In this document: positions 761 through 55,957 of the stretch, piece by piece | Layout: every line of letters starts with the position of its first letter | Numbering within the stretch: position 1 is the stretch's first letter | Assembly: GCA_964430265.1 (NCBI GenBank) | Contig: CAYSEI010000005.1 | Span: 14,784-78,783, forward strand | Length of the DNA stretch: 64,000 nt | Reading direction: 5' to 3' | From: an uncultured Pseudomonadales bacterium | Lineage (GTDB): Bacteria > Patescibacteriota > Microgenomatia > UBA1400 > CAYXSR01 | Notes under the pieces: model-generated | The model's database searches: none | The model's input: the letters and a program-made list of their open reading frames with translations, nothing else | Told to the model about the DNA's origin: nothing | Position numbers and translations under genes: made by a program

Positions 761-1402
761 TCCATTAAAGGTCCCCGATGTGTTGAGGTCGCGAACCGAG
801 CCGTCGATATGAACTCTTGGGCCCGACCACGCTGTTATCCCCAAAGTAGCTTTTATCCGATAAGCTCCGCACTCATCCACAGAGTGCTGGAGGATCACTA
901 AGACCGAGTTTCCTCTCAGCTCCACGAGCTTGTGTCGCTGTTAAGCATGCTTTTACCTTTACACGTCCAGCCCGATTTCCATCCGGGCCAAGCATACCTT
1001 TGTGCGCTTGCGTTACCTTTTAGCAAGCAACCTCCCCAGTTAAACTGCCCACCAAACACTGTCCCTAGACCCGTTTAGGGTCCCTGGTTAGAGACCAACC
1101 TACCAAAGAGAGGTATTCCACTGACGGACTGACAAAGTCAGCCCTCCCTCCTATTCTCGACAGTTGGTAAATTGGCCCCAATGTCAAGCTACAGTAAAGC
1201 TTTATGGGGTCTTTTTGTCCTGCAGTAAGTAGGCCGCATCTTCACGGCCATTTCAATTTCACCGAGTCTATTTCCAAGACAGCTTCCAAGTCGTTAAACC
1301 TTTCATGCACGTCGGAACTTACCCGACACAGTTCTGTTACTTTATGACCCAAAAATTGGGCGGCATACTGTTTCCAGTATGCTCTACATGTCGCCATGTA
1401 GC

Positions 1403-2299: not shown

Positions 2300-2441
2300 G
2301 TTCTCCCTCTAAGCCTAAAGCCTAAAAGGACCCCTGTAGTGAGGTACTTCGCTCATAAAGTTATTTTATAACTTACGTAGTGTTAACCTTAAAGGTGCTT
2401 TTACGCTTTTAAAAGCTCTCTTAGTCGCCTAAGAGTTCGGA

Positions 2442-2975
2442 CTATATCTTCCCATTTCTAAAATGGGTCCTACGTATAGTCTCTGAGGATGTTAAAAACT
2501 TTGGGATTTTCTGTTCGTTTATCCGATAAGATATTCTGGCAATTTTTTCAATTCCTTCCAATTTTAAGTGGATTTTCTCTTCAACCATAAGTTGAACCAC
2601 CTCAGAAAAAAGATCAAAGGACTTTGCTTTGTAGGTCCTTAATCTATTTTTCTTAAAAAACGGAATTATCTTTTTGCTCAGATCTTTAAGACTTCTAACA
2701 CAATATCTGTGTAAGTCTTCTTTGTGATTGTCATGTCTTCGATTAATAAAAATTCTCCCACATCTAAAATAGTCTTTTACTATTTCTAATGCTTTAAAAC
2801 TCTTTTCGCCTTGCGTTAAAACAAATTCTGGCATTACTTGCCAGCCAAGACGAGTAGTACGATTTTTATTAATAGAAACACAAAAACAACCATCTCCATC
2901 GGTAAAACCAACAATCCATCCTTCAAGCTTTAACCTTTCCTGCTGATTGTCCGCACTTGAATCATTTTCACTCAT
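2442..2975 (-). CDS. LAGLIDADG homing endonuclease (intron-encoded)
   Basis: 177 aa ORF with GWIVGFTDGDGCFCVSI (canonical LAGLIDADG block); embedded in 23S. Confidence 0.75.
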   Translation of the reverse strand: MSENDSSADNQQERLKLEGWIVGFTDGDGCFCVSINKNRTTRLGWQVMPEFVLTQGEKSFKALEIVKDYFRCGRIFINRRHDNHKEDLHRYCVRSLKDLSKKIIPFFKKNRLRTYKAKSFDLFSEVVQLMVEEKIHLKLEGIEKIARISYRINEQKIPKFLTSSETIRRTHFRNGKI

Positions 2976-4532
2976 AATTAAGTAAAATCTAGCACATAGT
3001 TATGAGTAGATCAAGATACACGGAGTTTCCAGCATATAGTAGGATTTTACTATGGCAGCGAATTCTACCATAGAACAGTTATAGTTACTGCTGCCGTTCA
3101 CCGGAGCTTATACCAAAGGCTATCTTACAAAGTAAGACCACCCTCAGCACTTAACTTACCGGCACTGGGCAGGTATCAGCCCCTATACATCCTCTTTCGA
3201 GTTAGCAGAGACCTGTGTTTTTGTTAAACAGTCGCTTGGAAATCTTTAGCTGCGACTTTCCTTATGCAAGCACAAGGAAAGTAGGGCATCTTCCGAAGTT
3301 ACGCCCAGCTTGATTGCCGAGTTCCTTGGAAATAGTTCTCTCGCTCATCTTCCCATTCTCAGGGTGTCCACCAGTGTCGGTAATGAGGTACGGTTTCTGT
3401 TCTTCCTCCTTACGACGCTTTTCCCGGATGCAGAATTGTTTCAACTCATCTCCTTGAAACAAGGAAATTTGCATTCGTTACTCAACATTAACGTCACTAC
3501 GGATTTACCTATAGTGACTGTTTTGTAGCTTAGACTCGGCAACTTCATCGCCGAGCTTGAATTGTCCCGCATCGTCACGCCTTAAGTAATATCGCAAAAA
3601 CAGAAGTACAGGAATATTAACCTGTTGTCCATCGACTACGCCGTTTGGCCTCGCCTTAGGACCGACTAACCCAACGCCGACGAACGTTGCGTTGGAAACC
3701 TTGGACATTACGATGTTCTGGATTCTCACCAGAATTTCGTTACTCATACCGGCATTCTCGCATCTGACAACTCCATCCCTAGCTCACGCCGGAACTTCAA
3801 TGTCGTCAGATCGCTCCCCTACCGCAGGCTACTATCCGAAGATAATAACCTACCCCTATTTTCGGTCCAGTACTTATTCTCATTAAATCTTAGGCGCCAC
3901 AAATCCTAGACCAGTGAGCTGTTACGCTTTCTTTCAAGGATGGCTGCTTCTAAGCCGACCTCCTGGCTGTCTGAGATTTATGACTTCCTTTTACTTAGTA
4001 CTGAGTTAGAGACCTTAAATGAGGGTCTGGGATGTTTCCCTTTCGCAACTGGAGCTTAGCCCCCAGTCACTGAGTGCACTAATCTTCACAAGAGTATTCG
4101 GAGTTTGGTTGATTACAGGAACTTGAAAGCTCCTGCAACCATCCAGTGCTCTACCTCTCTAGTTTAAATTAGAACCCTATACCTAAATATATTTCGGGGA
4201 GAACCAGCTATCTCCGAGCTCGATTAGCATGTTACTACGACCCACAGATCATCTTAAGCATTTGCATTTGCCACAAGTTCGGGCTTCCCCCTGGCTTTCG
4301 CCAGAGTTCACCCTGTCCATGGGTAGCTCGCCCGGTTTCGGGTCTTTTGAATTGCGCTGAACGCCTTATTCAGACTCGGTTTCCCTACGCCTTCACTACA
4401 GAGTAGTTTAGACTCGCACTAATTCAAAAACTCGCCGGTTCATTCTTCAATAGGCACGCCATCACCCACGATAAATCGGGGCTCTGACCGCTTGTTAGCA
4501 AACAGTTTCAGATTCTATTTCACTCCCCTCCC

Positions 4533-4566
<34 letters not shown>

Positions 4567-5183
4567 ACACTATCGGTGATTTTCTGTATTTAGCCTTGGG
4601 AGAGTGGTTCTCCCGGATTCCCACAAAAGTTGCATCAATCGTGGTACTCAGGAACTTTACACTGTCGTAATCAATTTTTGGGTACGGGACGTTCGCCCTC
4701 TTTGGTTGTTCAATTCCGGAACATTCCCCTAATTTTTCCGACATAAAAGTAAAGCCCTGCAACCCCAGCCGATATGGCTGGTTTGGGCTGTTCCGTTTTC
4801 GCTCGTCGCTACTAACGGAATCGATTTTCTTTCTCTTCCTCCAGGTACTAAGATATTTCAGTTCCCTGGGTTATCTCCTAACTACCTATGTATTCAGTAG
4901 TTGGTGTCAAGGCTTTACAGCCAAGACAGGTTTCCCCATTCGGATACCACCGGATCAAAGCTTTTTTGGCAGCTCCCCGGCGCTTTTCGCAGCCTAGTGC
5001 GTCCTTCATCGTCAGAAAATCCCATAGGCATTCACTGTTTGCTTTAATTGGAATAATTAACTAAAAAATCATTCCATCTATTCCACCTGACGGCGGACAC
5101 TAAATTGTTTTGAAAACAAAACAAGATAGGTTAGATAAGCAATCTCTTCACTTTTCAAAGAGCAATCCAAAGTTTAATTTGGG

Positions 5184-5256
5184 TGGACCCGAGCGGGTTT
5201 GAACCGCTGACCTCCACTGTGCAAGAGTGGTGCTCTCCCAACTGAGCTACAGGCCC
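5184..5256 (-). tRNA. tRNA-Ala (anticodon TGC)
   Basis: Reverse complement GGGCCTGTAGCTCAGTTGGGAGAGCACCACTCTTGCACAGTGGAGGTCAGCGGTTCAAACCCGCTCGGGTCCA folds as a cloverleaf with anticodon loop CTTGCAC; sits just upstream of the 23S 5' end. Confidence 0.9.
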
Positions 5257-5437
5257 ATAAAAAAAGCCTCCGTAAAGGAGACTCTATTCTTAATCCGCTT
5301 TGGGATTAAAACACTACATTTTGCCTTGGTAACCTATTTTGAATTTTGATTTACAAAGCAATTCACACATATATATTTTTGCAAGTCTCCTTACAAAGCT
5401 TAGAATACCAAAACATAGGGGGTAAGTCAAGCAGCAA

Positions 5438-6130
5438 TTATTTAAAAATGTATGCTGGAATTCCCAGTATTAAAAGAAGTGCTCCCAAAGCTAAAAATGC
5501 AAAAGTATATTCAATAGTTCCGGACTCCGGCAAAGCTGAAGGTGTCGCATCTTCATCAGTTCCACCTCCGACACCCGCATCTTCCGATGCTTCCGGTGAC
5601 GGAGAGGCTGTTACTGTTCCTTCTCCTAAAGTATAGCTGCCATCTACATTTGCACTACAAACTATTATATCTGTTGGGGTTGGATCATTAATTCCTGAAT
5701 CTGTACTGTCTCCTGCAGTACAATCAAAAGTCAGTGCGGCTGTTCCACTTGTGCTTTTGGCTTCAACTATCATAGTTGCCAAAGTCCCGGTTCCCGTTTT
5801 ACTCTCCAAAGAAGAACCCAAAGAAAGATTTGCATTTATGATTACTTGACTGGAGTAAATATTGTGTGAAACATCATCAAAGAAACTTCCTCCCTCAATA
5901 GATGTAACTTCTAATTTTGATGAGTCAAAGTTAATTACTGCTTTAGCGCTTTTTGCCTCTTGTCCTCCAGTATCTATTAAAACATCAATTTCACTTCCAG
6001 ATGTTTCTATTGTTCCACTGGTCGGAGAAAATTCCAAGTGAGGGTCTGCTGCAAAAGCATTAGTAGCAAAAACTGTTAGCAAAAAAACTGTACTCAAAAT
6101 GTATAGGCAGGTTCTTTTCATAATATTCAT
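5438..6130 (-). CDS. Secreted cohesin-like domain protein with a C-terminal LPxTG-like (LPESG) sorting signal
   Basis: Signal peptide MNIMKRTCLYILSTVFLLTVFATNAFA; cohesin-like pattern AVINFDSSKLEVTSIEGGSFF...ATMIVEAKSTSGTAALTF; C-terminus LPESG followed by a hydrophobic TM and terminal K. Confidence 0.55.
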   Translation of the reverse strand: MNIMKRTCLYILSTVFLLTVFATNAFAADPHLEFSPTSGTIETSGSEIDVLIDTGGQEAKSAKAVINFDSSKLEVTSIEGGSFFDDVSHNIYSSQVIINANLSLGSSLESKTGTGTLATMIVEAKSTSGTAALTFDCTAGDSTDSGINDPTPTDIIVCSANVDGSYTLGEGTVTASPSPEASEDAGVGGGTDEDATPSALPESGTIEYTFAFLALGALLLILGIPAYIFK

Positions 6131-6135
6131 TATAA

Positions 6136-6759
6136 TTATTTTATGCTGATTGTCAAAGGTCCAATTTGACCCAACAGCTCTTTACCTCCGTAAGCAGCCA
6201 TACTACTTTCTTTTTGATTAATGCCTATCTTTACTGTTCCTTCCTCTTTTGGAACAATAGTATAGGTTGTTAAAAGTTCATTATTCATCGGCTTTTCTAC
6301 ATTCAATTCTTGAATAGTAATTATTTGCGCTTCACCCTTTTGATTGTCAATTTCATTTTTCAAATAAGTAAAAAACTGCCCAGGTATCGGATTCTGGAGT
6401 TCAATTTTGTCCGGATTATATTCTAAAATATATTCCACACCATCAATTATTTCCCCATTTCCATCCCCATAAACAGAAATTTGAAAACCTTCGTTTACAT
6501 TATATGTATTTCTATCACTTGTTATATATATCCTAGCATTTTCTTTTACCTCTACATCAGTAGAGATTACTTCCTGCTTCCCTTTATCAGGAATTTCCTT
6601 AATAACCTTTTTTTGCGGAGCTTTTTTTTCTTTTTTAAAGTCACCAGGTCTAAACTCTTTGATTGTAGAAATTTCTCCTGTATATAGATAGTATCCTATT
6701 ATACCCATAATTAAACTAGTCAAAAGTATTAAACTATAGCTGATTAGCTTTTTTTTCAT
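6136..6759 (-). CDS. Membrane-anchored cohesin-like domain protein
   Basis: N-terminal TM (LISYSLILLTSLIMGIIGYYLY); cohesin-like core GEIIDGVEYILEYNPDKIELQNPIPGQFFTY. Confidence 0.45.
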   Translation of the reverse strand: MKKKLISYSLILLTSLIMGIIGYYLYTGEISTIKEFRPGDFKKEKKAPQKKVIKEIPDKGKQEVISTDVEVKENARIYITSDRNTYNVNEGFQISVYGDGNGEIIDGVEYILEYNPDKIELQNPIPGQFFTYLKNEIDNQKGEAQIITIQELNVEKPMNNELLTTYTIVPKEEGTVKIGINQKESSMAAYGGKELLGQIGPLTISIK

Positions 6760-6771
6760 TTTCTCTGCTCC

Positions 6772-9039
6772 TTATTCATCATCTTGCTTATGTGTTATTG
6801 TTTTTTGGAATAAGTATTTATCTGTGTCATCCACAACTCCATTAAAGTTGCCGTCTGCTGCCCAACATCCCTTATCTCCGGCATAATCACCCTCGGCCTC
6901 ATATTTGTCATCTCCAGCCTTACTATTCATGCATTCCTTTATTATAGAATAGTCTTTTACTCCCACAACATGATCCTCATCAACATCTCCAAATTCCATA
7001 GGCTGGATTTGTTCTCCTTCATCCACTAAGGAAAAGTTGAGTGTTTTTTCTTCTCCGCTTGTTATCTGAATATAATCGCTCCTAGAACAAAGGTCATTAA
7101 TTCCTTGATTTTCACTGCAAAATCTTATTCTACGGTGATTTGGTCCCTTGATTAAGAAGTTGTATCCTCCAGTCAACATGGAATGAGTATCAAAAGTAAA
7201 CGTTTTGTGGTAATTTTTTGTATCCGGATTGTATTCAAAGTCAAAGTAGTCGGCAATAATATAAGTGTTGTCTTCCGCTTGAATTGCAAACTGAACCTCT
7301 AAGTTTCTGTATCTGTCTCTTAAATTACAATACCTGGGATCACAATCTTCATCAAGACAGCAATAATCATTATTATTAGCCGGTACACCGTCAAATTTAA
7401 CCTGTATATTAAGTTTAGTTATATCACTATCATCACTTGGCGATGGACTTGGATTTGAGGAAGGACTTGGACTTGGTAACGGAGATCCGCACACATATCC
7501 AGCCTGGAAACAAGTCCCATTACACACTACACAACCAAATTCCTCTGGACAACCCATACTTGCCAAATCTCCTACAGGACAACAACCGCTCTCTGGATTA
7601 GAAGCACAGTCAAAATCATAACAATCCGTATCGCCATCACAATCATTATCTTTTTGATCACTACAATCCTCAGTCGCACCAGGATAAACATTTCTGTCAT
7701 TGTCATCACAGTCTTGTCCACCACATTCAATATTTACATATTCGTCTGCATCCATATCAGTGGTACAAATTCCATTAGTACAACAAACATCACCTTCAGA
7801 ACAAGCTCTACCATTACAATCTAAATCAGCACAATCGATTTTTCCGTCTCCATCATTATCTTGCGAGTCCGAACAATTCTGTTCAGCTGTTGATGTTGAT
7901 GGGCTTGGTGATGCCTGAGGAACACATTCTGCTGCATTACATGTTTCACCCGTTCCACAAGAAACTCCACATCCGCCGCAATTATTTTCATCAGTAAGTA
8001 AATCGGCTTCACAACCATCCCCCCAGTTATTATTGCAATTATCAAAACCACATTCACAATTACAGCTCTTAAATGCCTCTACTTCTCCCCAATCAATTCT
8101 GTCAAACCACTCCTTAAAACTCCATTTAAAATTAGCTATTGTTCCTTCGCCAGGCTTGTATCTTGTCTGCCAGACATTTGTTCCCTGTACAATAGCTGAG
8201 TAGTAATATCCGTCTTCCTCTCTTTTATATGTTGAAAAAGCACCAATTGAATTATCAGCACTAAAAGTATTAATTCCTTCCCAATCTACATTGTCTACCC
8301 AATTGGAAAAATCCCATTTTAAGTTTGCTTTTGTTCCTTCAGCGGGTTTGTATTTTGTCTGCCAGACATTTGTTCCCTGCGTTATCATAGTATAGTAGTA
8401 GCCGTCTTCATCAATTTTATATATACTCATAGCCTCTATACGGTCATTAGTATTAAAAGGATCAATTCCATTCCAGTCTATTTTGCTTGCCCATTCTTTG
8501 AAACTCCATTTAAATGTTGCTTTTGTTCCTTCAGCAGGTTTGTATTTTGTCTGCCAGACATTTGTTCCCTGCGTTATCATAGTATAGTAGTAGCCATCTT
8601 CATCAATTTTAAATATCGCCATAGAATCAATCGGGTCATTAATACTAAAAGGATCAATTCCGTTCCAGTCTATTCTGCTTGACCATTCTTGGAAGTTCCA
8701 CTTAAAAGTTGCAACTGTTCCTTCCCCAGCCTTGTATTTTGTCTGCCAGATATTATTGTCTTCAGTCAGCATAGTATAATAGTAACCGTCTTCATCAAGT
8801 CTGAATTGTGCAATTGAATCAAGGTTTTCACTGGGTGCAAAATCACCAATGCAAACAGCATTTGCCCCGCAGTCCTGATCTTCACTGCAAGACTCCTGCA
8901 CATAAACTTCCGGTTCTTTTGTGGGAGTTTTCATCGCCTGCCAAACACTGTATCCTGAACCAACCACTACTGCCAAGCTGAAGATATATACAGCTTTTTT
9001 TAGAAATCCTGGTTTTTGTTCTATATTTATTTTATCCAT
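6772..9039 (-). CDS. Large secreted Cys/Asp-rich surface protein: N-terminal signal anchor, 4 tandem 64-aa Trp-rich repeats, MopE-like metal-binding Cys motifs, PS-rich linkers, C-terminal dockerin-like Ca-binding loop
   Basis: 755 aa. Repeats DEDGYYYTM..WQTKYK..EGT.A.FKW.F.EW...IDWNGIDPF occur four times. Motifs CSDQKDNDCDGDTDC and FDNCNNNWGDGCEADL; linkers SPSPSTSTA and PSPSPSSNPSPSPS; C-terminus ADGNFNGVVDDTDKYLF (dockerin-like D-x-N-x-D-G-x-V-x-D). Confidence 0.5.
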   Translation of the reverse strand: MDKINIEQKPGFLKKAVYIFSLAVVVGSGYSVWQAMKTPTKEPEVYVQESCSEDQDCGANAVCIGDFAPSENLDSIAQFRLDEDGYYYTMLTEDNNIWQTKYKAGEGTVATFKWNFQEWSSRIDWNGIDPFSINDPIDSMAIFKIDEDGYYYTMITQGTNVWQTKYKPAEGTKATFKWSFKEWASKIDWNGIDPFNTNDRIEAMSIYKIDEDGYYYTMITQGTNVWQTKYKPAEGTKANLKWDFSNWVDNVDWEGINTFSADNSIGAFSTYKREEDGYYYSAIVQGTNVWQTRYKPGEGTIANFKWSFKEWFDRIDWGEVEAFKSCNCECGFDNCNNNWGDGCEADLLTDENNCGGCGVSCGTGETCNAAECVPQASPSPSTSTAEQNCSDSQDNDGDGKIDCADLDCNGRACSEGDVCCTNGICTTDMDADEYVNIECGGQDCDDNDRNVYPGATEDCSDQKDNDCDGDTDCYDFDCASNPESGCCPVGDLASMGCPEEFGCVVCNGTCFQAGYVCGSPLPSPSPSSNPSPSPSDDSDITKLNIQVKFDGVPANNNDYCCLDEDCDPRYCNLRDRYRNLEVQFAIQAEDNTYIIADYFDFEYNPDTKNYHKTFTFDTHSMLTGGYNFLIKGPNHRRIRFCSENQGINDLCSRSDYIQITSGEEKTLNFSLVDEGEQIQPMEFGDVDEDHVVGVKDYSIIKECMNSKAGDDKYEAEGDYAGDKGCWAADGNFNGVVDDTDKYLFQKTITHKQDDE
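8065..8796 (-). repeat. Four tandem repeats of about 192 bp (intragenic, encoding the 64-aa Trp-rich module); two copies nearly identical at the DNA level
   Basis: Near-identical stretches ccttcagc.ggtttgtattttgtctgccagacatttgttccctgcgttatcatagtatagtagtagcc at about 8336-8410 and about 8529-8600; protein period is 64 aa. Confidence 0.8.
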
Positions 9040-9955
9040 TTCTTTGATAATTTCTTAAATCAACTTCACAACCATTACTCCAATCGTGATCACAGTTGTC
9101 AAAAGGAACCTCGCATTCACATTCTCCGTCTGCATTCAAATCTGCATTAGGTCCACAAACATCTTTAATACTATATGCTTCACATTGCTGTGTATCTGTA
9201 TTCCAACACAAATTCGGACCACAGTTACAACCTTCTGAAATTACTTGAGCACAAGTCATATCCGGATTTTTTGCATATCCACATCTATCCTTGCATGAAT
9301 TGGGAAAGTCTATTTTCCAACTCCCTCCTCCTTGATCACAAATCTCTTGCGGATCCAAGTTTTGATCTGCAGAGGGAATTTGTACACTATTTGCACTTGA
9401 TAATGACTGGTCTATAACATTACCGCCTGAAGTTCCAGCCAACTGGACTGCAGTTTCTGACAAAGAAATTGAAACATTTGCGTCCCGCGTATTATCCAAA
9501 ACATTAAAAGTGACATCTACAAATTTTTCTGGATCAGCTGAAGAATGGCTGATTGCACTTGCTTCATCAGTTACAAAAAGAAAAATATATTTTCCTGCAT
9601 TACCTGCCAAAGGATGGCTAAGAAAGTTTCCCCGAGATGTATGTCCGCTCTTGCCGGCATATTCAAGAATACTTTCATCCCATTGCAAAACCACAGCTGC
9701 AGAATAATAACTGTCATTGGGATGTGTAGCCAAATTAACTGAAACTTTAACTTGTTCTCCTATTGACGGCAAAGTAGAAGCGCCTGTTTCAACTTCAAAA
9801 TATGCTTGATTTTCTGTTGAAACCGGATATAGCTCGGGGGTTTTGGGAGTTTTTGTTTCTAAAATATTTTTTAAAATTAAAGAAGATGCAAAAACAAGTA
9901 ATAAACTAAAAATTAGAAATAATGTTTTATCGTCTTTTATTAATCTTTTCTGCAT
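9032..9955 (-). CDS. Membrane-anchored protein with an N-terminal cohesin-like domain and a C-terminal Cys-rich module
   Basis: TM LFLIFSLLLVFASSLIL; cohesin-like AAVVLQWDESILEYAG...YIFLFVTDEA...FVDVTFNVL; C-terminus CDQGGGSW...FDNCDHDWSNGCEVDL shares the FDNC..W..GCE.DL motif with the 755-aa neighbour. Confidence 0.45.
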   Translation of the reverse strand: MQKRLIKDDKTLFLIFSLLLVFASSLILKNILETKTPKTPELYPVSTENQAYFEVETGASTLPSIGEQVKVSVNLATHPNDSYYSAAVVLQWDESILEYAGKSGHTSRGNFLSHPLAGNAGKYIFLFVTDEASAISHSSADPEKFVDVTFNVLDNTRDANVSISLSETAVQLAGTSGGNVIDQSLSSANSVQIPSADQNLDPQEICDQGGGSWKIDFPNSCKDRCGYAKNPDMTCAQVISEGCNCGPNLCWNTDTQQCEAYSIKDVCGPNADLNADGECECEVPFDNCDHDWSNGCEVDLRNYQRNG

Positions 9956-10013
9956 TTAAATTTTGCCTCTAATATTTCATTATATGTAAATAACAATTTG
10001 CATGCAACTTTCT

Positions 10014-11930
10014 TTATAAACTTGCCCCCCAGCAATCAAAGAGCCCTAATAATTCTTTCATTCCAAAACCATTGCCCCAGTTATTAAAAACTATTAACAA
10101 ATCAGCAATATCAATCACAGAATTTGAATTATCGTAATTAAAAGCAGAACAAATACTTCCTCCACCTGTATATTTCACCCAGTCAATTCTTATATCACAA
10201 TCATCATGGTCATTGCAGATATCAATATATTCAACTTCTGCATTGATAGAAACACCATTAATACCACGCTGGTTCAGGTTATTACCAGCAACCTCCCAAT
10301 ATTCTAACCCCGTCTTTTTAATATACACATCAAGATCATTGCAGCCATTTTTTCCTCCACCTTCACATTTAGTTCCTTCATTATCAGCTAATGATTTTAT
10401 AAAAAAGTCATTGATTCTCATTCCATTGGCATTGAACCTTACACACTGACCAGTTGTTTCACTGTCTCCATCTGAAGTATTATGCTTACATGAACCGCTT
10501 TGATCAATACAGTACAAATCTCCGCCGTTATTGCAGTCTTGTGCAACAGTATTATCATTTCTGCATCCTGTTCCTGTTGCTCCACAATTGAGCTTGCTTA
10601 GTTTTGGGTTTGCACACACTGCATCATTAGGAACAGCGTATGACTCTACTGGGCAAGAATCTCCTTTCCCACCACCACCGCCGCCATCTCCACCGCCACC
10701 ACCAGGAGGACAACATAAATGATTGTCCATGTTATCTCCATCACCCGTACAATATGAATGGTTTTTTCTACAATCATCCCACTCACACCAATCACAATTG
10801 CCAACACACCAGCCCCCATCACACTTTCCGCCACCACCGCCGCCGCCGTCTCCACCACCATTTCCTCCAGTATAAACACATTCACTATAATCAGATTTCC
10901 ACTCATATCCAGCCGGTGGATAAGCCTGACAGTTAACAGCCCCAGAAGTTCCTTCAGTTTTACCACAACCCTCATGGCCAGGACAATGATCAGTCAAACA
11001 CTGGACCGCACAACCACTCTTTTTTGCAGAACCGCAATCAGAATCACTCTGGCATGCATCTCCAGGATCTATTCCACCACCATCCCCACCATCTCCTCCA
11101 TCACCACTATCTCCACCACAAATATTAGCACAACCTTCTGGTTTGTTAGCATCCGTACAATCCCATTCTTGATAACAAACACAGTAATCATACCCACAAT
11201 CTTTACGTGTTTGAGAGCTTATCTTCTGGGCACATTTTTGTCTTGACACATCAAGAAAGAAGTCTTTAGGACTGGTCTTCATACACATGTTTTTTTTAGA
11301 TCCACAAATATCAGCACATGTTGTGTCACCACAAAAATTTTCACAAATACCTGGCAAATTGGAATCATTACAATTCCAATATTTATAACACATTGAATAG
11401 TTAGCATCCATATCCTTACAACTTCCTGAAGGTTTCCAAACAGATTCAATATGCATAATACCACTATGAAACTTGTAACAACCAATAGATTCGTTACTGC
11501 ATCCAATATTATATCCACTTGAACAACTTCTTGTCCCATTATCATCTTCATCCGGGAAACAGCAACCATTACATTCATCTGAAAAATTAATCCATTCTAT
11601 GCACACATGATTATCTGAAGGCTTAGGTTTTGTACACTTATTATCATCTACTAATTTCATCATATACCTACCAATATCTTCTTTGCCATCACATATATTT
11701 GTATTTCTCGAATCTGCCAGCCAACCTGTTGATTTTATCTCGGCTTTACATCCAGGCGAACAATTACCTTGTTGTGTATATACTTCCGGCTGGCGTTTTT
11801 GCATTGAGTCTTGTTGCAAAAAAGTCATTCCCGTACCTACAATTAAAGAAAAAATAATAACATAAGGAATTAACTTGAAGGGAGAGATTAATTTTTTTGA
11901 TTTTTCAATATGAATGTTAACAGGTTTCAT
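10014..11930 (-). CDS. Very Cys- and Gly-rich secreted protein with a C-terminal dockerin-like domain (paralog of 11971..13389)
   Basis: 638 aa; N-terminal signal anchor with PEVYTQQ; poly (GGD)n and GGGGGG tracts; more than 70 Cys; C-terminus FNYDNSNSVIDIADLLIVFNNWGNGFGMKELLGLFDCWG. Confidence 0.45.
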   Translation of the reverse strand: MKPVNIHIEKSKKLISPFKLIPYVIIFSLIVGTGMTFLQQDSMQKRQPEVYTQQGNCSPGCKAEIKSTGWLADSRNTNICDGKEDIGRYMMKLVDDNKCTKPKPSDNHVCIEWINFSDECNGCCFPDEDDNGTRSCSSGYNIGCSNESIGCYKFHSGIMHIESVWKPSGSCKDMDANYSMCYKYWNCNDSNLPGICENFCGDTTCADICGSKKNMCMKTSPKDFFLDVSRQKCAQKISSQTRKDCGYDYCVCYQEWDCTDANKPEGCANICGGDSGDGGDGGDGGGIDPGDACQSDSDCGSAKKSGCAVQCLTDHCPGHEGCGKTEGTSGAVNCQAYPPAGYEWKSDYSECVYTGGNGGGDGGGGGGGKCDGGWCVGNCDWCEWDDCRKNHSYCTGDGDNMDNHLCCPPGGGGGDGGGGGGKGDSCPVESYAVPNDAVCANPKLSKLNCGATGTGCRNDNTVAQDCNNGGDLYCIDQSGSCKHNTSDGDSETTGQCVRFNANGMRINDFFIKSLADNEGTKCEGGGKNGCNDLDVYIKKTGLEYWEVAGNNLNQRGINGVSINAEVEYIDICNDHDDCDIRIDWVKYTGGGSICSAFNYDNSNSVIDIADLLIVFNNWGNGFGMKELLGLFDCWGASL

Positions 11931-11970
11931 TAATATTAAGACTATCTTTTAAAAAAACAAATGTCAAACT

Positions 11971-13389
11971 CTAAATTTGTTTACCCCAGCAATCAAAGAG
12001 CCCCAACAATTCTTGCATTCCAAAATGATTGCCCCAGTTGTTCAAAAGAAATAATAAATCCGAAATGTCTATTACAGAATTTGCATTATCGTAATTAAAA
12101 GCTTTACACCCACTAACACAATTACCATTTTCACAAGTTTCACCATCATTACACAAAGAACCTTCATCAATAACTCCATCACAATCATTATCCTCACCAT
12201 CACAAACTTCATTTTCCACCAAACAGCAAGCACCTTCTAAACAAACCTCACCATCTCCACAAGCCAATATACGTGGATCTGCATCATTACAGTCTTCAGG
12301 TCCACATTCTTCTCCATCTGGTGAATACGCATCTCCATCTTTATCTGTACAACAAATACCAGAAAAACATTGTTCATCTCCATTGCAGCTACCACAATTT
12401 AAAGTTCCGCCACAACCATCAGCAAAAGCTCCACATTCATATCCCAACTCCTGACAAGTATCTGGAATGCAAGTATTACAGCAGCAAGTATAATCAACCC
12501 CAGCTAATTGCGGTGCTTTATAGCAATCCTGTGTATATCCCTGGATAGCAACGCCTCCATTCTCACAAATTTGCGGGTCCATAATTACTTGATATTGATC
12601 ACAATAGCCACCTTCAGTATAGCCTGCTTCAGCACATAACTCTTCACAGCTCTGAGGATATTCTACACAGATGCATCCAGCTTCACAAAATCCTCTCGGA
12701 CATTGTTCTCCACTATCCAGACAACCATACATACATTCTCCTCCTGCACAACTTTCTGTTGTGCAAGGATTATTATCATTACAAGTCCCGCAGTTCAAGG
12801 TTCCCCCGCAGCCATCGCTAGGCTGTCCACACACATAGCCAAGTTCATCACATGTTTTAGGTACACAATCTTCTTTGCCCGTCATTTTAAACCTAGCAGT
12901 CCGTTTCCAGTTTCCACTCGGAAGATTAAAAGCAAAAGAACATCCCTCTCCTGAGTTGACAGTAGTATTGTTTTCAATATCCACTACCCACCATTCACAG
13001 GAATCATAAGTAAGATCAGGATCAAGACTTAAAGTACAGGTTACTTGTCCTGCATCACAATTAAGTTCATTAAAATGTCCGCCAAAATCATCATTTATAT
13101 TTGACCATCTAACATCTCCACAACAAGTAACAGAGATATTTGCCTGCGGAGCGCTTCCTTGTCCATATGGAGTCCAACGCTGGCTTCCCGTATCTTCAGC
13201 CAGAATTACACCATTAAAATAGTTGTAAATTGTTTGCTGATAAATCTCTGGTTCTTGAATTTCATTGATTGCTTCTTTTTTTGATAAAAAACTCATACCA
13301 GTCCCAATAATTACGGAAAAAACAAAAACCATTGCTAAGATTTCTAAAGGAGTGGTTATTTTATCATTATGGTTTTGGACAGATTTCAT
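11971..13389 (-). CDS. Cys-rich secreted protein with repeated C-x-ELGY-x-CG-x4-DGCGGTLNCG modules, a MopE-like CDGEDNDCDGVIDEG motif and a C-terminal dockerin-like domain
   Basis: 472 aa; N-terminal anchor VFSVIIGTGMSFL plus PEIYQQ; C-terminus FNYDNANSVIDISDLLFLLNNWGNHFGMQELLGLFDCWG is nearly identical to the C-terminus of the 638-aa neighbour. Confidence 0.45.
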   Translation of the reverse strand: MKSVQNHNDKITTPLEILAMVFVFSVIIGTGMSFLSKKEAINEIQEPEIYQQTIYNYFNGVILAEDTGSQRWTPYGQGSAPQANISVTCCGDVRWSNINDDFGGHFNELNCDAGQVTCTLSLDPDLTYDSCEWWVVDIENNTTVNSGEGCSFAFNLPSGNWKRTARFKMTGKEDCVPKTCDELGYVCGQPSDGCGGTLNCGTCNDNNPCTTESCAGGECMYGCLDSGEQCPRGFCEAGCICVEYPQSCEELCAEAGYTEGGYCDQYQVIMDPQICENGGVAIQGYTQDCYKAPQLAGVDYTCCCNTCIPDTCQELGYECGAFADGCGGTLNCGSCNGDEQCFSGICCTDKDGDAYSPDGEECGPEDCNDADPRILACGDGEVCLEGACCLVENEVCDGEDNDCDGVIDEGSLCNDGETCENGNCVSGCKAFNYDNANSVIDISDLLFLLNNWGNHFGMQELLGLFDCWGKQI

Positions 13390-13407
13390 TATGTATATGT
13401 AAAAAAA

Positions 13408-14892
13408 TTAAAATTTATCTTTTTGTTCATTAAAAAGAATTTCCTCAAATCCTTTTTTTTCTCTTGTTTTGTGATTACTTATCTTTGTTAAGCTGATTCT
13501 TTTAACTTCATAGGGGTTCATTGTTAAATCTAATTTCCATTCCGAATCAGAAAAATCTTCTATTCTTTCAGAAGGCTGGCTAAAAAGATCCTGCTCAAAA
13601 AACCGGTATTTACCTCCAGCAAGATCTTTAAAAGTCAAACTGAAATTTTCTGTCTGTGGTACATTTTTTGAATAATTACTTAAAATTACAGTTAATGTGC
13701 GGTCATTTTTAACTGCAAATCCCTTGACATTACTACCTTCTCCCGTCAACACAACTCTTTTTCCCTGCAAATCGCTTAACCAGCTGTATATATAGTAGCG
13801 GGGTTTTTCTTTGATCCCTTCAGATTCATGAGTTAAAAGCCCCCAACCTTTGTTCCCCTGTCCTACACCATCTTTTATTTCAAATGTATATGCATACCTT
13901 ACTTTATCCAATAATTTACGTAGTGTATTCACTGCATGCGACGCTGACACCATTTTCGAATAATTTTCATCCTTAGATGAGTTTGGCCCCCATTCCGTAA
14001 TAATTTTTTCAGTTCCTGCAAATTCACTATACTTTTCCTGGCTTGTTAAAACATTAACTTCATAAACGTCCTGCACAAAAACATCCGGGTTGTATGAATA
14101 CCTATGCCAGGAAATAAAATCCAAACGTATACCGTTTTTCAATACATAGTCAAAAAGCATTTTTATCCATGTCGGATCCATCTCCGGAATTGACGGACCG
14201 CCGATTTTAAATTCCTTTACCCCCGCCGCTGCTTGAGCCCCTTTTACAGAGTAAAGATACAATTCCCGGTAGTCTTTTTTTCCAGACATTTTCCATCCGC
14301 CAAATGAATCAAGACTTGGTTCATTCCAAACCTCATAATATATATTATCTACCTGGCGGGAATAATGTTCCACAGTTCTTTTTACCAATCTTTCCCAGTC
14401 TCTCCAGTTATCTGGTTTTCCTGTTTTTGTTTCTGCAATTTCACTTGGCATATATGAAAGAACCAGCATTGGCTTGGCTCCAGAGGATAAAATGTCGTTT
14501 ACTGTTTTGTCTAATTTTCCCCAACTCAGATTTAAAGTTCCATCACTGTTTCTTCCTTGAACTACATTATAATAGTCATCATCATATATATGATCTAAAC
14601 GCACATAATCAGGATTTAACCGCTTTATCTGTGGAACTGCCGCACCAAGCATTTCTTTACCAGGTTCTTCTCCTCCTTGGGCAAAAGCACTCCAAACTTG
14701 ATTAACTGGACCTATCTCCTTGTTAGGCTGCACAACAATAGCCGCAGGATAATATGGAGTTTCAACAAAAATTTGTGGTATTTTTATATTTATCTTTTTT
14801 TCAATCCACCAGATTTCAAAACAAATAAACAGAAAAAACGTTGCTAAAATACCAATTAAAATTTTTTTTATATTGTTTTCTATAAAAGTCAT
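13408..14892 (-). CDS. Membrane-anchored glycoside hydrolase, clan GH-A (GH39/GH5-like)
   Basis: N-terminal TM; catalytic acid/base motif YYEVWNEPS, the ISWHRYS block and nucleotide-free nucleophile motif ITEWGPN typical of clan GH-A (beta/alpha)8 hydrolases. Confidence 0.6.
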   Translation of the reverse strand: MTFIENNIKKILIGILATFFLFICFEIWWIEKKINIKIPQIFVETPYYPAAIVVQPNKEIGPVNQVWSAFAQGGEEPGKEMLGAAVPQIKRLNPDYVRLDHIYDDDYYNVVQGRNSDGTLNLSWGKLDKTVNDILSSGAKPMLVLSYMPSEIAETKTGKPDNWRDWERLVKRTVEHYSRQVDNIYYEVWNEPSLDSFGGWKMSGKKDYRELYLYSVKGAQAAAGVKEFKIGGPSIPEMDPTWIKMLFDYVLKNGIRLDFISWHRYSYNPDVFVQDVYEVNVLTSQEKYSEFAGTEKIITEWGPNSSKDENYSKMVSASHAVNTLRKLLDKVRYAYTFEIKDGVGQGNKGWGLLTHESEGIKEKPRYYIYSWLSDLQGKRVVLTGEGSNVKGFAVKNDRTLTVILSNYSKNVPQTENFSLTFKDLAGGKYRFFEQDLFSQPSERIEDFSDSEWKLDLTMNPYEVKRISLTKISNHKTREKKGFEEILFNEQKDKF

Positions 14893-14896
14893 TTTT

Positions 14897-15460
14897 TTAC
14901 TTATTGAGTATAATATTTGCTCCCTGTATTTCTTCCAAAATATCTGTACCTTCCATTGATATTAAATTAGAGTCAAGCAAGCTTTGCTTATTAAAATCAA
15001 ACTCAATTTCAGCACTGCCCGTACTTATTGGCAAAAAATATATTTCCTTAACCAAAAATTCGTTTTCTTCTTTTCCAGTCAATTGTTTTGAGTATTCAAT
15101 TAGCCCAATCTTCTCATTTACTTGCACATCACTACTAAGCACCTGTAGAAGGTCTGAAGGATAAAATATTTTTAAATCTACTTTTTTTAAAGGTTGATCT
15201 GTCTCTGCATAAAATCCGAGAGAAAATTGTTTTGCAAATCTTGCTTCGGACGGTTCTATTCTTAAACGTCCTCCCTGAGGTAATTTTTCTTGAATATCCT
15301 TTTCATGAATATCTGAAGTTTCTTTTACTGCCTGCTGTGGAAGCTGCTGCGGGGTTCTTTGTTCTTCTAAAACAGGCATCCTAAAGGAAACCCATAAAGA
15401 TTGTACTATTATTAAAACAGAAAATATCCATAAATAATAATCTTTTTTAATTTCAAGCAT
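14897..15460 (-). CDS. Small membrane-anchored protein with a cohesin-like region (first gene of the island operon)
   Basis: N-terminal TM WIFSVLIIVQSLWVSF; LKKVDLKIFYPSDLLQVLSSDV...AEIEFDF resembles cohesin-core strands. Confidence 0.35.
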   Translation of the reverse strand: MLEIKKDYYLWIFSVLIIVQSLWVSFRMPVLEEQRTPQQLPQQAVKETSDIHEKDIQEKLPQGGRLRIEPSEARFAKQFSLGFYAETDQPLKKVDLKIFYPSDLLQVLSSDVQVNEKIGLIEYSKQLTGKEENEFLVKEIYFLPISTGSAEIEFDFNKQSLLDSNLISMEGTDILEEIQGANIILNK

Positions 15461-15467
15461 TATTTTA

Positions 15468-15511
15468 ATATTAAATCATTTTTGTTTTTTAATCAAAATA
15501 TGATAAAATTA
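15468..15511. promoter_or_regulatory. Divergent promoter region: minus-strand TTGATT-17-TAATAT for the island operon; plus-strand TTGTTT plus extended -10 TGATAAAAT for tRNA-Ile
   Basis: Minus strand: -35 at 15491..15496, 17-bp spacer, -10 at 15468..15473, ATG at 15460. Plus strand: TGnTAAAAT at 15501..15509, 11 nt before the tRNA start. Confidence 0.35.
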
Positions 15512-15520
15512 TGGATGTTC

Positions 15521-15592
15521 GGGCAGATAGTTCAGTGGTAGAACGCTGTCCTGATAAGACAGAGGTCGGAGGTTCGATCCCTTCTCTGCCCA
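15521..15592 (+). tRNA. tRNA-Ile (anticodon GAT), oriented opposite to the flanking rRNA genes
   Basis: GGGCAGATAGTTCAGTGGTAGAACGCTGTCCTGATAAGACAGAGGTCGGAGGTTCGATCCCTTCTCTGCCCA; cloverleaf with anticodon loop CTGATAA. Confidence 0.9.
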
Positions 15593-15625
15593 CAAAAAAA
15601 GACTCCAAATCGGAGTCTTTTTTTT
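15593..15625. terminator. Bidirectional rho-independent terminator (ends tRNA-Ile on + and 16S on -)
   Basis: A7-GACTCC-AAAT-CGGAGTC-T8: hairpin flanked by an A-run and a T-run. Confidence 0.7.
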
Positions 15626-15693
15626 ATTAGTTGACAATCTCAAAAAGCGGTAGGAAGAAATTTGCTTGTTAAAACAAGCAAAATAAACTCTTA

Positions 15694-17204
<1,511 letters not shown>

Positions 17205-17320
17205 TTTGAGACAAGAATTTTTAAATAACTATAAAAACTCTTGAAAAAATAGAAAGATATTATTTTATCTTCCTACCACTTTTTGAAATTGTCAACGAGC
17301 TAAACGCTTTGAAAAGAGAC

Positions 17321-17347
17321 AAAAAAACCCGCTAAGAGAGGCGGGTA
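17321..17347 (-). terminator. Rho-independent terminator downstream of ligT
   Basis: Minus strand reads CCCGCCTCTCTTAGCGGG followed by TTTTTTT. Confidence 0.6.
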
Positions 17348-17429
17348 TAAATTTCTCTTAGCTAGTAAAGGGTTTTCTACATTAATGTCTCCTTTTTCAA
17401 AGCACCTTTATTTTACCAATTTCTGTATA

Positions 17430-17996
17430 TTAGTCAAGCCTAAAACTGGCAATTTTACTATGCACAGATCCGCTTGTTAAAGTTTTACTTTTATAAATAT
17501 ATACCTTGTTAACAAATATTTCCGCGCTTAAATCCATTTCTCTCAAAGCTTTTACCTGTCTACCAATCTCTCTTTTATGTGCAGCACGCGCTCTTTTAAC
17601 TCTGCCAATGGTTATGTGCGGACGAAAAGGTCTTTTATCAAACTGAAAGTCTTTTTCATGCAATTCTTTGGCAATGTTTTTCTGCATTTTTGCCAGGCTG
17701 TGCAGATCTCCCTTCAATCCCAGCCACAAAACTTTAGGCCAGTCAAAATCCGGAAAAACCCCTAGCCCTTTTAAAGAAATTTTAAAAGGAGAAAGATTTT
17801 TAATTCCTTTATTAACTGCTTGTTTTAGTTCAGGTAAACGAGGTTTTTTAATGTTGCCAATAAAAACTAGGGTTAAATGCAGCTTTCCTGTTTTAACCCA
17901 TTTAGCTTTCCAATGCTTTTCTTTTAAATCTTCTATTAAAGCTTTAACTTCTTTTCTTGCTGGTTTGGACAAGTCAACAGCAATAAATGTTCTCAT
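17430..17996 (-). CDS. thpR: RNA 2',3'-cyclic phosphodiesterase / 2'-5' RNA ligase (LigT/ThpR)
   Basis: Two H-x-T-x motifs (HLTLVF, HITIGR) in a 188-aa 2H phosphoesterase fold. Confidence 0.8.
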   Translation of the reverse strand: MRTFIAVDLSKPARKEVKALIEDLKEKHWKAKWVKTGKLHLTLVFIGNIKKPRLPELKQAVNKGIKNLSPFKISLKGLGVFPDFDWPKVLWLGLKGDLHSLAKMQKNIAKELHEKDFQFDKRPFRPHITIGRVKRARAAHKREIGRQVKALREMDLSAEIFVNKVYIYKSKTLTSGSVHSKIASFRLD

Positions 17997-19495
17997 ATAA
18001 GAGATTTACCTGTCATTTCTTTGGCTTTTTTTAAACCTAAAATATCTAAAATAGTCGGAGCTAAATCTTGTAAACTTCCCTTGTCACGGTTTAGTTTTTT
18101 GTATTTATTACTAATCAAAATAAAAGGAATCGGGTTAGTTGTATGGGCAGTTTTAACATCTCCTGTCTCCGGCTCAAGCATTTCTTCTGCGTTTCCATGA
18201 TCTGCCGTGATTATAATCGAATAGTCATTTTTTAATCCTTCATTAACTATTTTCCCAATTGCCTGATCAACTGTCTCCAATCCTTTGATTGCTGCGTCAA
18301 TATTTCCTGTATGTCCTACCATATCTCCATTACAAAGATTAGTAAATATTATTGGATGCCTTTTCTCTTTAATGTCCTCAATAATTTCTTTAGTGATATC
18401 CGGAGTACGCATTTCCGGCTTTTTGTCATATGTATCAATATCACTAAAAGAATCAAGCATAATCCGGTCCTCACCTTCAAAAGGCGCTTCGCGCTTACAG
18501 TTTAAAAAGAAGGTTAAATGTGCAAATTTTTCTGTCTCAGTAATCCGTAGCTGTTTTAATCCAGCATCAGAAATTAACTCACCTAATGAGTTTTTTACCT
18601 TAACAGGAGGAAAAGCAACTTTCACCTCATAATCAGGACTATAACGTGTCATAGTCACGTATTCTAAATTATCAGGACCTTTCTCCAGAAATCTTTCAGT
18701 TAACTGGCGCGGCCTGTCATTTCTAAAATTAACAAAAACCACCGCATCATCAGAAGAAATTGTTCCTTGTTCACCTTCCTGAACTTCAATTAATGCCGGT
18801 TTGATAAACTCATCTGTAATTCCATTTTTGTATGCTGCATCTACTGCTTGTTCAACAGTCTTATAAACTTTTCCGTTACCTCTAGTCAAAACTTCAAAAC
18901 TTTTGTCAGTTCTTTCCCAGTTTTTGTTTCTGTCCATTGCATAATAACGTCCGGATATTGATGCAATTTTTCCTACACCAATTTCCTTTATTCGCTCTTC
19001 CAATTCTCTGATATATCTTTTGGCACTTTGGGGAGGAACGTCCCTTCCATCAGTAAAAACATGTATATATATATCTTCAATTCCATACATCTTTGCACCC
19101 TTAAGCAATGCATAAACATGCTCCTGGTGAGAATGAACTCCTCCCGGACTAATTAATCCTTTGATGTGCAAAATAGAATTATTTTCTTTAACGTGTTTAA
19201 AAGCAGAAATAATTGCTTTATTGTTAAAAAAAGATTGGTTTTTAATCGACTTGTTTATTCTTACCAAATCCTGGAAAATTACTCTTCCGGCACCAATAGT
19301 CATGTGGTTTACTTCTGAAGTACCCATCTGTCCTTTAGGAAGTCCAACTGCCTCACCGGCAGATTGCAAAACTGCTCGGGGATATTTATGCCACAAATTA
19401 TCAAAATTATACGTTTCTGCTTTTTTTATGGCATTACCAGCTTCATTAGAAGACAAACCCCATCCGTCTAGTATTACACAAACTACTTTACTCAT
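17993..19495 (-). CDS. gpmI: 2,3-bisphosphoglycerate-independent phosphoglycerate mutase
   Basis: 500 aa; N-terminus VVCVILDGWGLS; metalloenzyme iPGM blocks (ADHGNAE). Confidence 0.9.
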   Translation of the reverse strand: MSKVVCVILDGWGLSSNEAGNAIKKAETYNFDNLWHKYPRAVLQSAGEAVGLPKGQMGTSEVNHMTIGAGRVIFQDLVRINKSIKNQSFFNNKAIISAFKHVKENNSILHIKGLISPGGVHSHQEHVYALLKGAKMYGIEDIYIHVFTDGRDVPPQSAKRYIRELEERIKEIGVGKIASISGRYYAMDRNKNWERTDKSFEVLTRGNGKVYKTVEQAVDAAYKNGITDEFIKPALIEVQEGEQGTISSDDAVVFVNFRNDRPRQLTERFLEKGPDNLEYVTMTRYSPDYEVKVAFPPVKVKNSLGELISDAGLKQLRITETEKFAHLTFFLNCKREAPFEGEDRIMLDSFSDIDTYDKKPEMRTPDITKEIIEDIKEKRHPIIFTNLCNGDMVGHTGNIDAAIKGLETVDQAIGKIVNEGLKNDYSIIITADHGNAEEMLEPETGDVKTAHTTNPIPFILISNKYKKLNRDKGSLQDLAPTILDILGLKKAKEMTGKSLI

Positions 19496-31263: not shown

Positions 31264-31294
31264 ATTTTCCTTTCTATTTAAAAATTACTTTATG

Positions 31295-55944: not shown

Positions 55945-55957
55945 AAAGCCTTTAATT

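Follow-up and report, generated by a model that had tools for sequence, protein, structure and literature searches.

A candidate cohesin-dockerin-type surface operon placed between the 16S and the 23S rRNA gene of a Microgenomates-like bacterium

What is encoded by eight closely packed genes that stand between the 16S and 23S ribosomal RNA (rRNA) genes of an apparent Candidate Phyla Radiation (CPR) bacterium, and do their products come together on the cell surface? The question arises from a stretch of 64,000 nucleotides (nt) from an uncultured bacterium (contig CAYSEI010000005.1 of assembly GCA_964430265.1, positions 14,784 to 78,783), referred to here at its full length as the window. Eight minus-strand open reading frames (ORFs), taken from an ORF listing with translations and named P1 to P8 by ascending coordinate, make up an island at positions 5438-15460 of this window. 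A preliminary description had read the island as the parts list of a scaffoldin/dockerin complex, a claim that does not hold for reasons given below. We consider the scales about evenly balanced for another reading: that the island forms a single operon whose products build a non-cellulosomal, cohesin-dockerin-type assembly on the cell surface of a Microgenomates-like CPR bacterium. Part of its support lies in the concentration of three or four cohesin-type and three dockerin-type modules within 10 kb; no other scanned ORF of the 64-kb window gave a Cohesin or Dockerin_1 match.

The eight ORFs proved to be co-directional and packed, as had been described. From P8 to P1 the intergenic gaps are 4, 18, 40, 58, -8, 12 and 5 nt (the negative value being an 8-nt overlap of the P4 stop with the P3 start), and this tight spacing on a shared strand is the layout of an operon. 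Its parts are as follows:

5438..6130, minus strand: P1, with a signal peptide (..NAFA/ADP), a cohesin-like domain, an acidic linker, and LPESG followed by a hydrophobic segment and K
6129..6156, minus strand: sigma-70 promoter candidate, TTGACA-16-TATAAT, matching the consensus at 12/12 positions
6136..6759, minus strand: P2, with an N-terminal transmembrane (TM) anchor, a Lys-rich linker and a beta-rich domain of ~130 amino acids (aa)
6772..9039, minus strand: P3, with an N-terminal hydrophobic segment, four 64-aa repeats, Cys-rich acidic/MopE modules, a PS linker, a beta-rich domain and a dockerin-type end
6811..6990, minus strand: dockerin-type module of P3, residues 684-743, GDVDEDHVVGVKDYSII ... 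ADGNFNGVVDDTDKYLF
8069..8776, minus strand: four tandem 192-nt (64-aa) W/Y-rich repeats in P3, with no family match
9032..9955, minus strand: P4, with an N-terminal TM anchor, a cohesin domain and a Cys-rich C-terminal module
9443..9766, minus strand: cohesin domain of P4, residues 64-171
10014..11930, minus strand: P5, with an N-terminal anchor, a Cys-rich region, poly-GGD tracts and a C-terminal module here called the X-module
10017..10151, minus strand: X-module of P5, 76% identical in aa to that of P6 (86% nt identity over 119 nt)
11971..13389, minus strand: P6, with an N-terminal hydrophobic anchor, a beta-rich N-domain, CG-DGCGG-LNCG repeats, a MopE-like CDGEDNDCDG motif and an X-module
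11974..12108, minus strand: X-module of P6, the C-terminal 45 aa
13408..14892, minus strand: P7, a TM-anchored GH39 (clan GH-A) glycosidase without a dockerin
14897..15460, minus strand: P8, with an N-terminal TM anchor, a linker and a ~125-aa beta-sandwich, cohesin-like by predicted fold only

A hydropathy scan scored N-terminal hydrophobic segments in P2, P4, P5, P6, P7 and P8; the N-terminal stretch of P3 stayed under the scan threshold. In P1 the scan picked out a signal-like N-terminal segment, and the C-terminus reads LPESG, 5 residues, about 20 hydrophobic residues and K. The anchors that had been ascribed to all four cohesin-like proteins are thus borne out by hydropathy (P2, P4, P8) and by hydropathy together with motif (P1). 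No Gram_pos_anchor or TIGR01167 match (the latter being the hidden Markov model, or HMM, for LPXTG anchors) was obtained for P1 in Pfam or NCBIfam, and its C-terminus is a putative sortase-type signal by motif. The promoter candidate at 6129..6156 overlaps the annotated P1 ATG and ends 7 nt before a second ATG (Met4, MKRTCLY...), which suggests a separate, strong, near-leaderless P1 mRNA starting at Met4. P3, P5 and P6, described earlier as Cys/Gly/Asp-rich, are so by composition (Cys 5.4, 8.8 and 10.6%, respectively; all three Gly/Asp-rich), and they are probably extracellular.

The case for cohesins is clearest in P4, which passes the Pfam family Cohesin (PF00963) with 35.8 bits against a gathering cut-off of 24.1 (E 1.1e-8, profile positions 11-120 of 139); a precomputed PF00963 annotation is carried by P0123 and P0124. 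Judged by this profile, P4 is a bona fide cohesin protein. P1 scores 21.2 bits as a whole protein and 22.9 as a domain alone (E 1e-4, profile 16-126/139), just under the same cut-off, and this near-threshold match makes it a probable cohesin-type protein. For P2 and P8 there was no Pfam Cohesin match even at E<=10. P8 nevertheless probably has a cohesin-like fold: 22 of the 24 Foldseek matches of its AlphaFold2 (AF2) model in the PDB at E<=1e-3 are cohesins, at a sequence identity to the solved cohesins of ~10%. The model itself is of low confidence (predicted local distance difference test, pLDDT, 52), since only one close homologue, and so no deep alignment, was available; homologue searches with P8 (in 5.8 billion clusters) and with P4 returned in each case only the protein itself and one close relative in the Logan assemblies. 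The sole family match of P2 is a weak BatD/DUF11 immunoglobulin (Ig)-like one of 19 bits, its comparison with the P8 family by hhalign gave E 0.12, and its cohesin nature is not established, the evidence being a motif.

Taken as a whole, then, the four cohesin-like cores of the preliminary description survive in part: fully in P4, just under the cut-off in P1, by predicted fold only in P8, and not in P2. P1, P4 and P8 each have one cohesin-type domain and their own anchor. The sequence signature said to unite the four, [FY]-x-[YFW]-[DN]-[PS]-x-x-[LI]-[EQ]-[VLY], fares worse, as it is literally present in none of them (0/4); a loosened form matches P1, P2 and P4 and none other of the 55 large ORFs of the window, and P8 has a variant one residue shorter. 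P1, P2, P4 and P8 show no detectable similarity to one another by BLASTP or hhalign, and neither a cohesin nor a dockerin came up when P1, P2, P3, P4 and the P8-family profile were searched against PDB sequences, so that for P1 and P4 no solved cohesin was matched at the sequence level.

The counterpart of a cohesin would be a dockerin, and the C-terminal tails of P3, P5 and P6 had all been called dockerin-like. HMM comparison upholds this nearly for P3 and only indirectly for the other two. Against Dockerin_1 (PF00404) full-length P3 reaches 15.3 bits; its C-terminal segment alone matches in two stretches with 22.0 bits (E 1.9e-4), the Pfam cut-off being 22.9 bits. By reading, it has two tandem F-hand segments, DVDEDHVVGVKD-YSIIKECM and DGNFNGVVDDTD-KYLFQKTI, each a predicted calcium (Ca) loop followed by a helix (the criterion being a 12-residue loop with D/N at positions 1, 3, 5 and 12, then a helix). 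Elsewhere in P3, residues 443-472 pass the MopE family PF11617 (29.3 bits against a cut-off of 27) and so resemble its metal-binding motif; the MopE-like CDGEDNDCDG of P6 is not above the PF11617 threshold. P4 residues 279-306 (9032..9120) and P3 residues 326-353 (7960..8060) have in common a Cys module, C-x-C-x3-FDNC-x3-W-x-[ND]GCE-x-DL, with 50% identity over 28 aa; it belongs to no curated family and is 96% conserved in the close relative described below.

The X-module of P5 and P6, two proteins that also share an N-terminal leader, has a Ca-loop-like segment NYDNANSVIDISD, a helix DLLFLLNNWG, a second helix without a loop GMQELLGLFDCWG, and a conserved Cys pair that brackets the whole. It has no Pfam match at E<=10, and its single loop-like segment carries a one-residue insertion; the AF2 model gives a loop-helix-helix secondary structure (pLDDT 61). 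Its first half, NSVIDISDLLFLLNNWG, matches the planctomycete-type dockerin/EF-hand repeat (DLNGDGVVDVSDLLxLLxNWG, PF00404); unlike that repeat, the X-module has a second repeat without a Ca loop (GMxELLGLFDCWG) and a Cys pair at its borders. A profile search against 1.84 billion representative proteins gave 34 significant matches, most of which contain the first half (the loop with its DLLxxLxNWG helix) at least twice, and Pfam Dockerin_1 was present in 19 of the 31 matches that were scanned. The X-module would thus be linked to dockerins transitively. Full-length matches are rare (about six proteins) and stand at the C-termini of unrelated secreted proteins, a subtilase among them, so that the X-module behaves like a targeting module; the contig of that subtilase (L007) has no cohesin neighbour, and a scan of JGI metagenomes with the X-module alignment returned two short, uninformative contigs. 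By hhalign the X-module is not significantly similar to the P3 dockerin, and the operon therefore has two distinct types of tail.

The Cys-rich modules between anchors and tails had been said to resemble nothing nameable, which is not the case. The P6 repeat (C-x-ELGY-CG-x-DGCGGTLNCG-C) is widespread: at E<=1e-3 it recurs in 296 proteins, which include many of Myxococcota and others of CPR-like or DPANN metagenome-assembled genomes (MAGs), and elsewhere repeats of this type are fused to many extracellular enzyme domains. They match the secreted Cys repeats of myxobacterial type (C-x-LG-x-CG-x-DGCGG-L-CG-C) of Corallococcus, Hyalangium, Polyangium and Pyxidicoccus, though the CG-DGCGG repeat has no Pfam or NCBIfam family match.

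The only enzyme of the island, P7, had been put forward as a membrane-anchored clan GH-A hydrolase, and this was confirmed: it is a TM-anchored GH39 protein (Pfam PF01229, 73.5 bits against a cut-off of 26) with intact WNEP and TEW motifs. Its EVWNEPSLD aligns with EVWNEPNLD (acid/base) and its ITEWG with FTEWS (nucleophile) of the beta-xylosidase 4M29. With GH39 beta-xylosidases (PDB 4M29/4EKJ, 6UQJ, 1UHV) P7 has the (beta/alpha)8 catalytic domain in common; it differs from them in its N-terminal TM anchor, in the weakness of the alignment (E ~1e-20), and in that its gene always adjoins the P8 cohesin-like gene in the loci found. A PslG-like assignment was rejected: the closest solved relatives are of the beta-xylosidase type, and PslG was absent from the PDB match list.

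Is this set of genes maintained as a unit? A relative was found in an independent Logan assembly from a different sample (SRR15425353; contigs L003 and L004), at 78-91% nt identity. The 8.2-kb contig L003 carries GH39'-P6'-P5'-P4'-P3'-P2' in the same order and with the same 8-nt P4/P3 overlap. The ratio of nonsynonymous to synonymous substitution rates (dN/dS) is 0.06-0.21 for all seven comparable genes (0.06 for P7), and these genes are therefore real and constrained. Within P3 the dockerin is the most conserved part, at 97% identity against 85% for the whole protein. At the other extreme, the N-terminal Cys-rich region of P5 (residues 1-165; L003 2675..4387), with 32-56% identity, indels and a dN/dS of ~0.5, is the fastest-evolving part of the operon. 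In the P4 orthologue (L003 4447..5754), 128 aa have been inserted after the cohesin domain and ahead of the Cys-rich C-terminal module; they may form an additional Ig-like domain, and they show modular gain and loss in these proteins.

More distant relatives retain much less. The closest genome match of the P7 GH39 is a Ca. Beckwithbacteria MAG (L001, 53% identity), followed by a second MAG (L002), and synteny comparison shows that in both only P8 (~40% identity) and GH39 are conserved, side by side. We infer from this that P8-GH39 is the old core and that the other six genes are a lineage-specific addition. L002 (CAZPUR010000011.1) is labelled uncultured Pseudomonadales, though P8-GH39 was otherwise seen here only in CPR-type loci, and the label is probably a binning or labelling error. 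The 16S gene of the window is 79% identical to that of L001, which makes the organism a distant Microgenomates-like CPR bacterium; together with the genome match and the LAGLIDADG ORFs in the 23S gene, this agrees with the CPR-like host that had been proposed.

If the island is indeed a cohesin-dockerin-type operon, its products could work as follows. The sockets would be held at the cell by TM helices (P4, P8 and perhaps P2) or by a sortase-type signal (P1), and the dockerin-type tails of P3, P5 and P6 would plug into these anchored cohesins. P3 and P4 would be the likeliest partners, given the 8-nt overlap of their genes and the fact that no part of P3 is better conserved than its dockerin; the X-modules of P5 and P6 would go to the other sockets, P1, P2 or P8. 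Cys-rich, adhesin- or lectin-like passengers would in this way be displayed on the cell surface beside the GH39, and the whole could help the cell to attach to a glycan surface, on a host cell or polymer, and to trim it locally. A more elaborate version, which we think rather improbable, would be a minimal "adhesome" with two orthogonal plugs, the two-loop dockerin of P3 and a new, one-loop, probably disulfide-stapled variant in P5/P6, that direct different fast-evolving, Cys-rich adhesins to four cohesin sockets with different anchors (three of them membrane-proximal and one linked to the wall by a sortase-type signal), gripping a host or substrate and positioning the GH39.

Several observations weigh against a cohesin-dockerin-type assembly. 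The P3 dockerin is 0.9 bit below the Pfam cut-off; the X-module has neither a Pfam nor a Foldseek fold match, and its likeness to dockerins comes down, in sequence comparison, to one loop-helix segment of ~20 residues; no sortase was found among the scanned ORFs of the window; no dockerin gene lies near P8-GH39 in the distant relatives (10 kb on both sides in L001; 10 kb upstream and ~0.7 kb downstream in L002); and the N-terminal hydrophobic segments of P3, P5 and P6, if uncleaved, would make a cohesin tether needless. Dockerin-like repeats, moreover, are common in bacteria without cohesins. The eight proteins could then be independent surface adhesins, each on its own anchor, in which the beta-sandwiches are generic Ig-like or cohesin-like spacers and the Ca-loop tails either stabilise the protein or attach to something outside it, such as a host glycan or the cell wall, rather than to the cohesins of the operon itself. 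The hydrophobic N-termini of P5 and P6 (and the weaker, sub-threshold one of P3) are in keeping with this, as are the single, weak BatD/Ig-like match of P2, the want of a cohesin HMM match in P8, the frequency of the dockerin-type repeats retrieved with the P5/P6 profile in organisms with no known cohesin partner, and the P8-GH39 pairs of L001 and L002 that have no dockerin neighbours. Independence would not, however, lead one to expect that P4, whose cohesin passes its threshold, is coupled in translation to the dockerin-type P3, an arrangement kept in the relative, that the dockerin is the best-conserved segment of P3, or that all of the cohesin- and dockerin-type modules detected in the scanned ORFs of the window fall within these 10 kb. 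We hold independent adhesins to be on the unlikely side, though the main competitor.

The enzyme invites two other explanations. P8-GH39 could trim the cell's own surface polysaccharide, as a PslG-type GH39 does, with the Cys-rich proteins as components of a surface layer; envelope-glycan or exopolysaccharide processing of this kind would agree with the conservation of P8-GH39 as the sole part shared with distant relatives, with the TM anchor and active-site signature of the GH39, and with the presence elsewhere in the window of a GT4 glycosyltransferase gene and L,D-transpeptidase/VanW genes. It is quite improbable all the same, given that the solved GH39 proteins nearest to P7 are beta-xylosidase-type and not PslG, that the island holds no genes for polysaccharide synthesis or export, and that the cohesin and dockerin modules would be left unexplained. 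A true cellulosome, that is, a scaffoldin-based multi-enzyme complex for the degradation of plant fibre, might be suspected, as cohesin, dockerin and glycoside hydrolase meet in one locus, and cohesin/dockerin proteins of a Microgenomates CPR have been interpreted as cellulosome parts (bioRxiv 10.1101/2021.08.21.457207). Yet this is very improbable here and is contradicted by the domain architecture: there is at most one cohesin per protein and so no multi-cohesin scaffoldin, none of the eight proteins has a match to a carbohydrate-binding module in Pfam or NCBIfam, the only enzyme lacks a dockerin, and the dockerin-bearing proteins carry Cys-rich, non-catalytic modules. It is on these grounds that the scaffoldin/dockerin parts list of the preliminary description fails.

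Seen as a cohesin-dockerin-type operon, the island has cohesin plus dockerin modules in common with the cellulosomes (C. thermocellum CipA/SdbA/OlpB) from which it otherwise departs so plainly. Ruminococcus flavefaciens ScaE is a sortase-anchored single cohesin, and P1 resembles an anchor of the ScaE type in that it combines a signal peptide with one cohesin-like domain and, at the C-terminus, an LPxxG-type signal. Besides sortase-anchored single-cohesin proteins of this kind, the closest systems are cohesin-dockerin pairs of the non-cellulosomal sort, such as the Archaeoglobus fulgidus cohesin (2XDH) and the Clostridium perfringens glycosidase cohesins (2VO8, 2W1N); modules of this sort were reportedly surveyed by Peer and colleagues in FEMS Microbiol Lett in 2009. 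Unlike those pairs, the island appears to combine four separately anchored single-cohesin(-type) proteins and three dockerin-type proteins in one operon, its passengers are Cys-rich repeat proteins rather than enzymes, and two of its dockerin-type modules have a single Ca loop. Nearer in descent, type I/II cohesin and type III dockerin proteins of Ca. Shapirobacterales BG1-G2 (Microgenomates) are expressed according to metaproteomics (bioRxiv 10.1101/2021.08.21.457207), and the dockerin-domain envelope protein SEML1_0315 is essential in a cultivated Saccharibacterium (PMC10633639). Both concern envelope proteins with cohesin or dockerin domains from the same superphylum, probably the same supergroup, but both are domain annotations without an operon, an inter-rRNA position or a one-loop module, and the likeness drawn here is by domains alone.

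Non-cellulosomal cohesin-dockerin pairs, Microgenomates cohesin/dockerin proteins and unlinked CPR rRNA genes are thus already published; what is possibly new is the one-loop dockerin-type module, and the position that splits the rRNA spacer is unusual. The means by which CPR/Patescibacteria attach to hosts or substrates are largely obscure and their surface proteins mostly unannotated, so an operon that offers concrete candidate interactions (a 4 x 3 matrix of cohesin-type against dockerin-type modules), among them a rare one-loop dockerin-type module with a potentially identifiable partner, is of use. It also documents the unlinking of an rRNA operon by a surface-protein operon inserted exactly between two spacer tRNAs. 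Its value is that of a well-defined example rather than of a new principle.

There remains the location itself. That the island lies between the 16S and 23S genes, as first described, was confirmed, and its surroundings are these:

113..670: homing-endonuclease-like ORF (LAGLIDADG_2, 133 bits), just past the 23S 3' end
726..5058, minus strand: 23S rRNA, spanning 4333 nt against a 2925-nt model, with a ~1.7-kb insertion
1403..2299 and 2442..2975: two LAGLIDADG_1 ORFs within the 23S insertion
5180..5257, minus strand: tRNA-Ala(TGC), upstream of the 23S (ARAGORN and Rfam)
5263..5285, minus strand: intrinsic-terminator hairpin with T-run, after P1, ending 5 nt before tRNA-Ala
15521..15593, plus strand: tRNA-Ile(GAT), on the strand opposite to 16S, island and 23S (ARAGORN and Rfam)
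15594..15624: bidirectional intrinsic-terminator hairpin (A-run, GACTCC stem, T-run) between the 16S 3' end and tRNA-Ile
15695..17203, minus strand: 16S rRNA, full length (Rfam RF00177, 1407 bits), a stand-alone unit with its own downstream terminator

The 16S and 23S genes are 10.6 kb apart, against a criterion of >1500 bp for unlinked rRNA genes, with a terminator behind each of 16S and P1. These terminators insulate the island on both sides, which makes the unlinking of the rRNA genes genuine, and the island occupies the site between tRNA-Ile and tRNA-Ala of the former 16S-23S spacer. No 5S rRNA was found in the whole 64-kb window, whereas in L001 a 5S directly follows the 23S. Patescibacteria typically have their 16S and 23S genes unlinked (Brewer et al., bioRxiv 10.1101/705046), and the present locus resembles those described there in a separation far beyond 1.5 kb and in a 23S with intron/homing-endonuclease insertions; it differs in having a 10-kb surface-protein operon precisely between two spacer tRNAs, with the tRNA-Ile inverted.

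Could this arrangement be a chimera, misjoined where rRNA or tRNA sequence is conserved? Ribosomal RNA operons are frequent break and misjoin points in metagenome assemblies, and the junction of P1, tRNA-Ala and 23S rests on one assembly. Against this, the 16S/island junction is reproduced by the independent 1.8-kb Logan contig L004, which at 91% nt identity covers the 16S 3' end, the inverted tRNA, P8' and the beginning of GH39'; neither guanine-cytosine (GC) content nor GC skew breaks at the island junctions, terminators dedicated to each unit follow 16S and P1, and unlinked rRNA genes are, as said, usual in this group. An artefact is therefore extremely unlikely. The chimera that the preliminary description had named as a possible objection is refuted on the 16S side, to which the independent confirmation extends; the 23S side is seen in this assembly alone. 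A mobile island was also considered and rejected, there being neither flanking, att-like direct repeats nor an integrase at the island.

Some details of the junctions deserve mention. The tRNA-Ile converges on the 16S 3' end over their shared terminator, and the same inverted arrangement occurs in L004 at 740..811. At the opposite end, in 5258..5437 (minus strand), a promoter-like TTGACT-17-TATTCT with a TG extension comes right after the P1 stop, and the terminator ~115 nt further on; a promoter before a terminator ahead of tRNA-Ala and 23S is odd and could belong to a small RNA or to an rRNA leader that is read through. A boxA-like motif GCTTTGTAA before tRNA-Ala was rejected, its frequency being not above chance. 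In L001 an intact 16S-tRNA-tRNA-23S-5S operon has the P8-GH39 pair immediately upstream of it, and within 9415..18386 of that contig the pair is accompanied by another secreted gene (11464..12858, 464 aa) upstream of the linked rRNA operon. P8-GH39 thus adjoins 16S in both lineages on opposite sides of it, which implies a rearrangement around 16S.

The rest of the window agrees with a distant Microgenomates-like CPR bacterium and holds lower-glycolysis genes, an anaerobic ribonucleotide reductase and FtsH. Two VirD4/TraG-like coupling ATPases (DUF87/TrwB) are encoded at 32816..35143 and 43224..45386, and a XerC/D-type integrase (31944..32819) lies 577 nt from a tRNA-Met gene (31294..31367). 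Two adjacent GH130 phosphorylase genes stand at 53989..57769.

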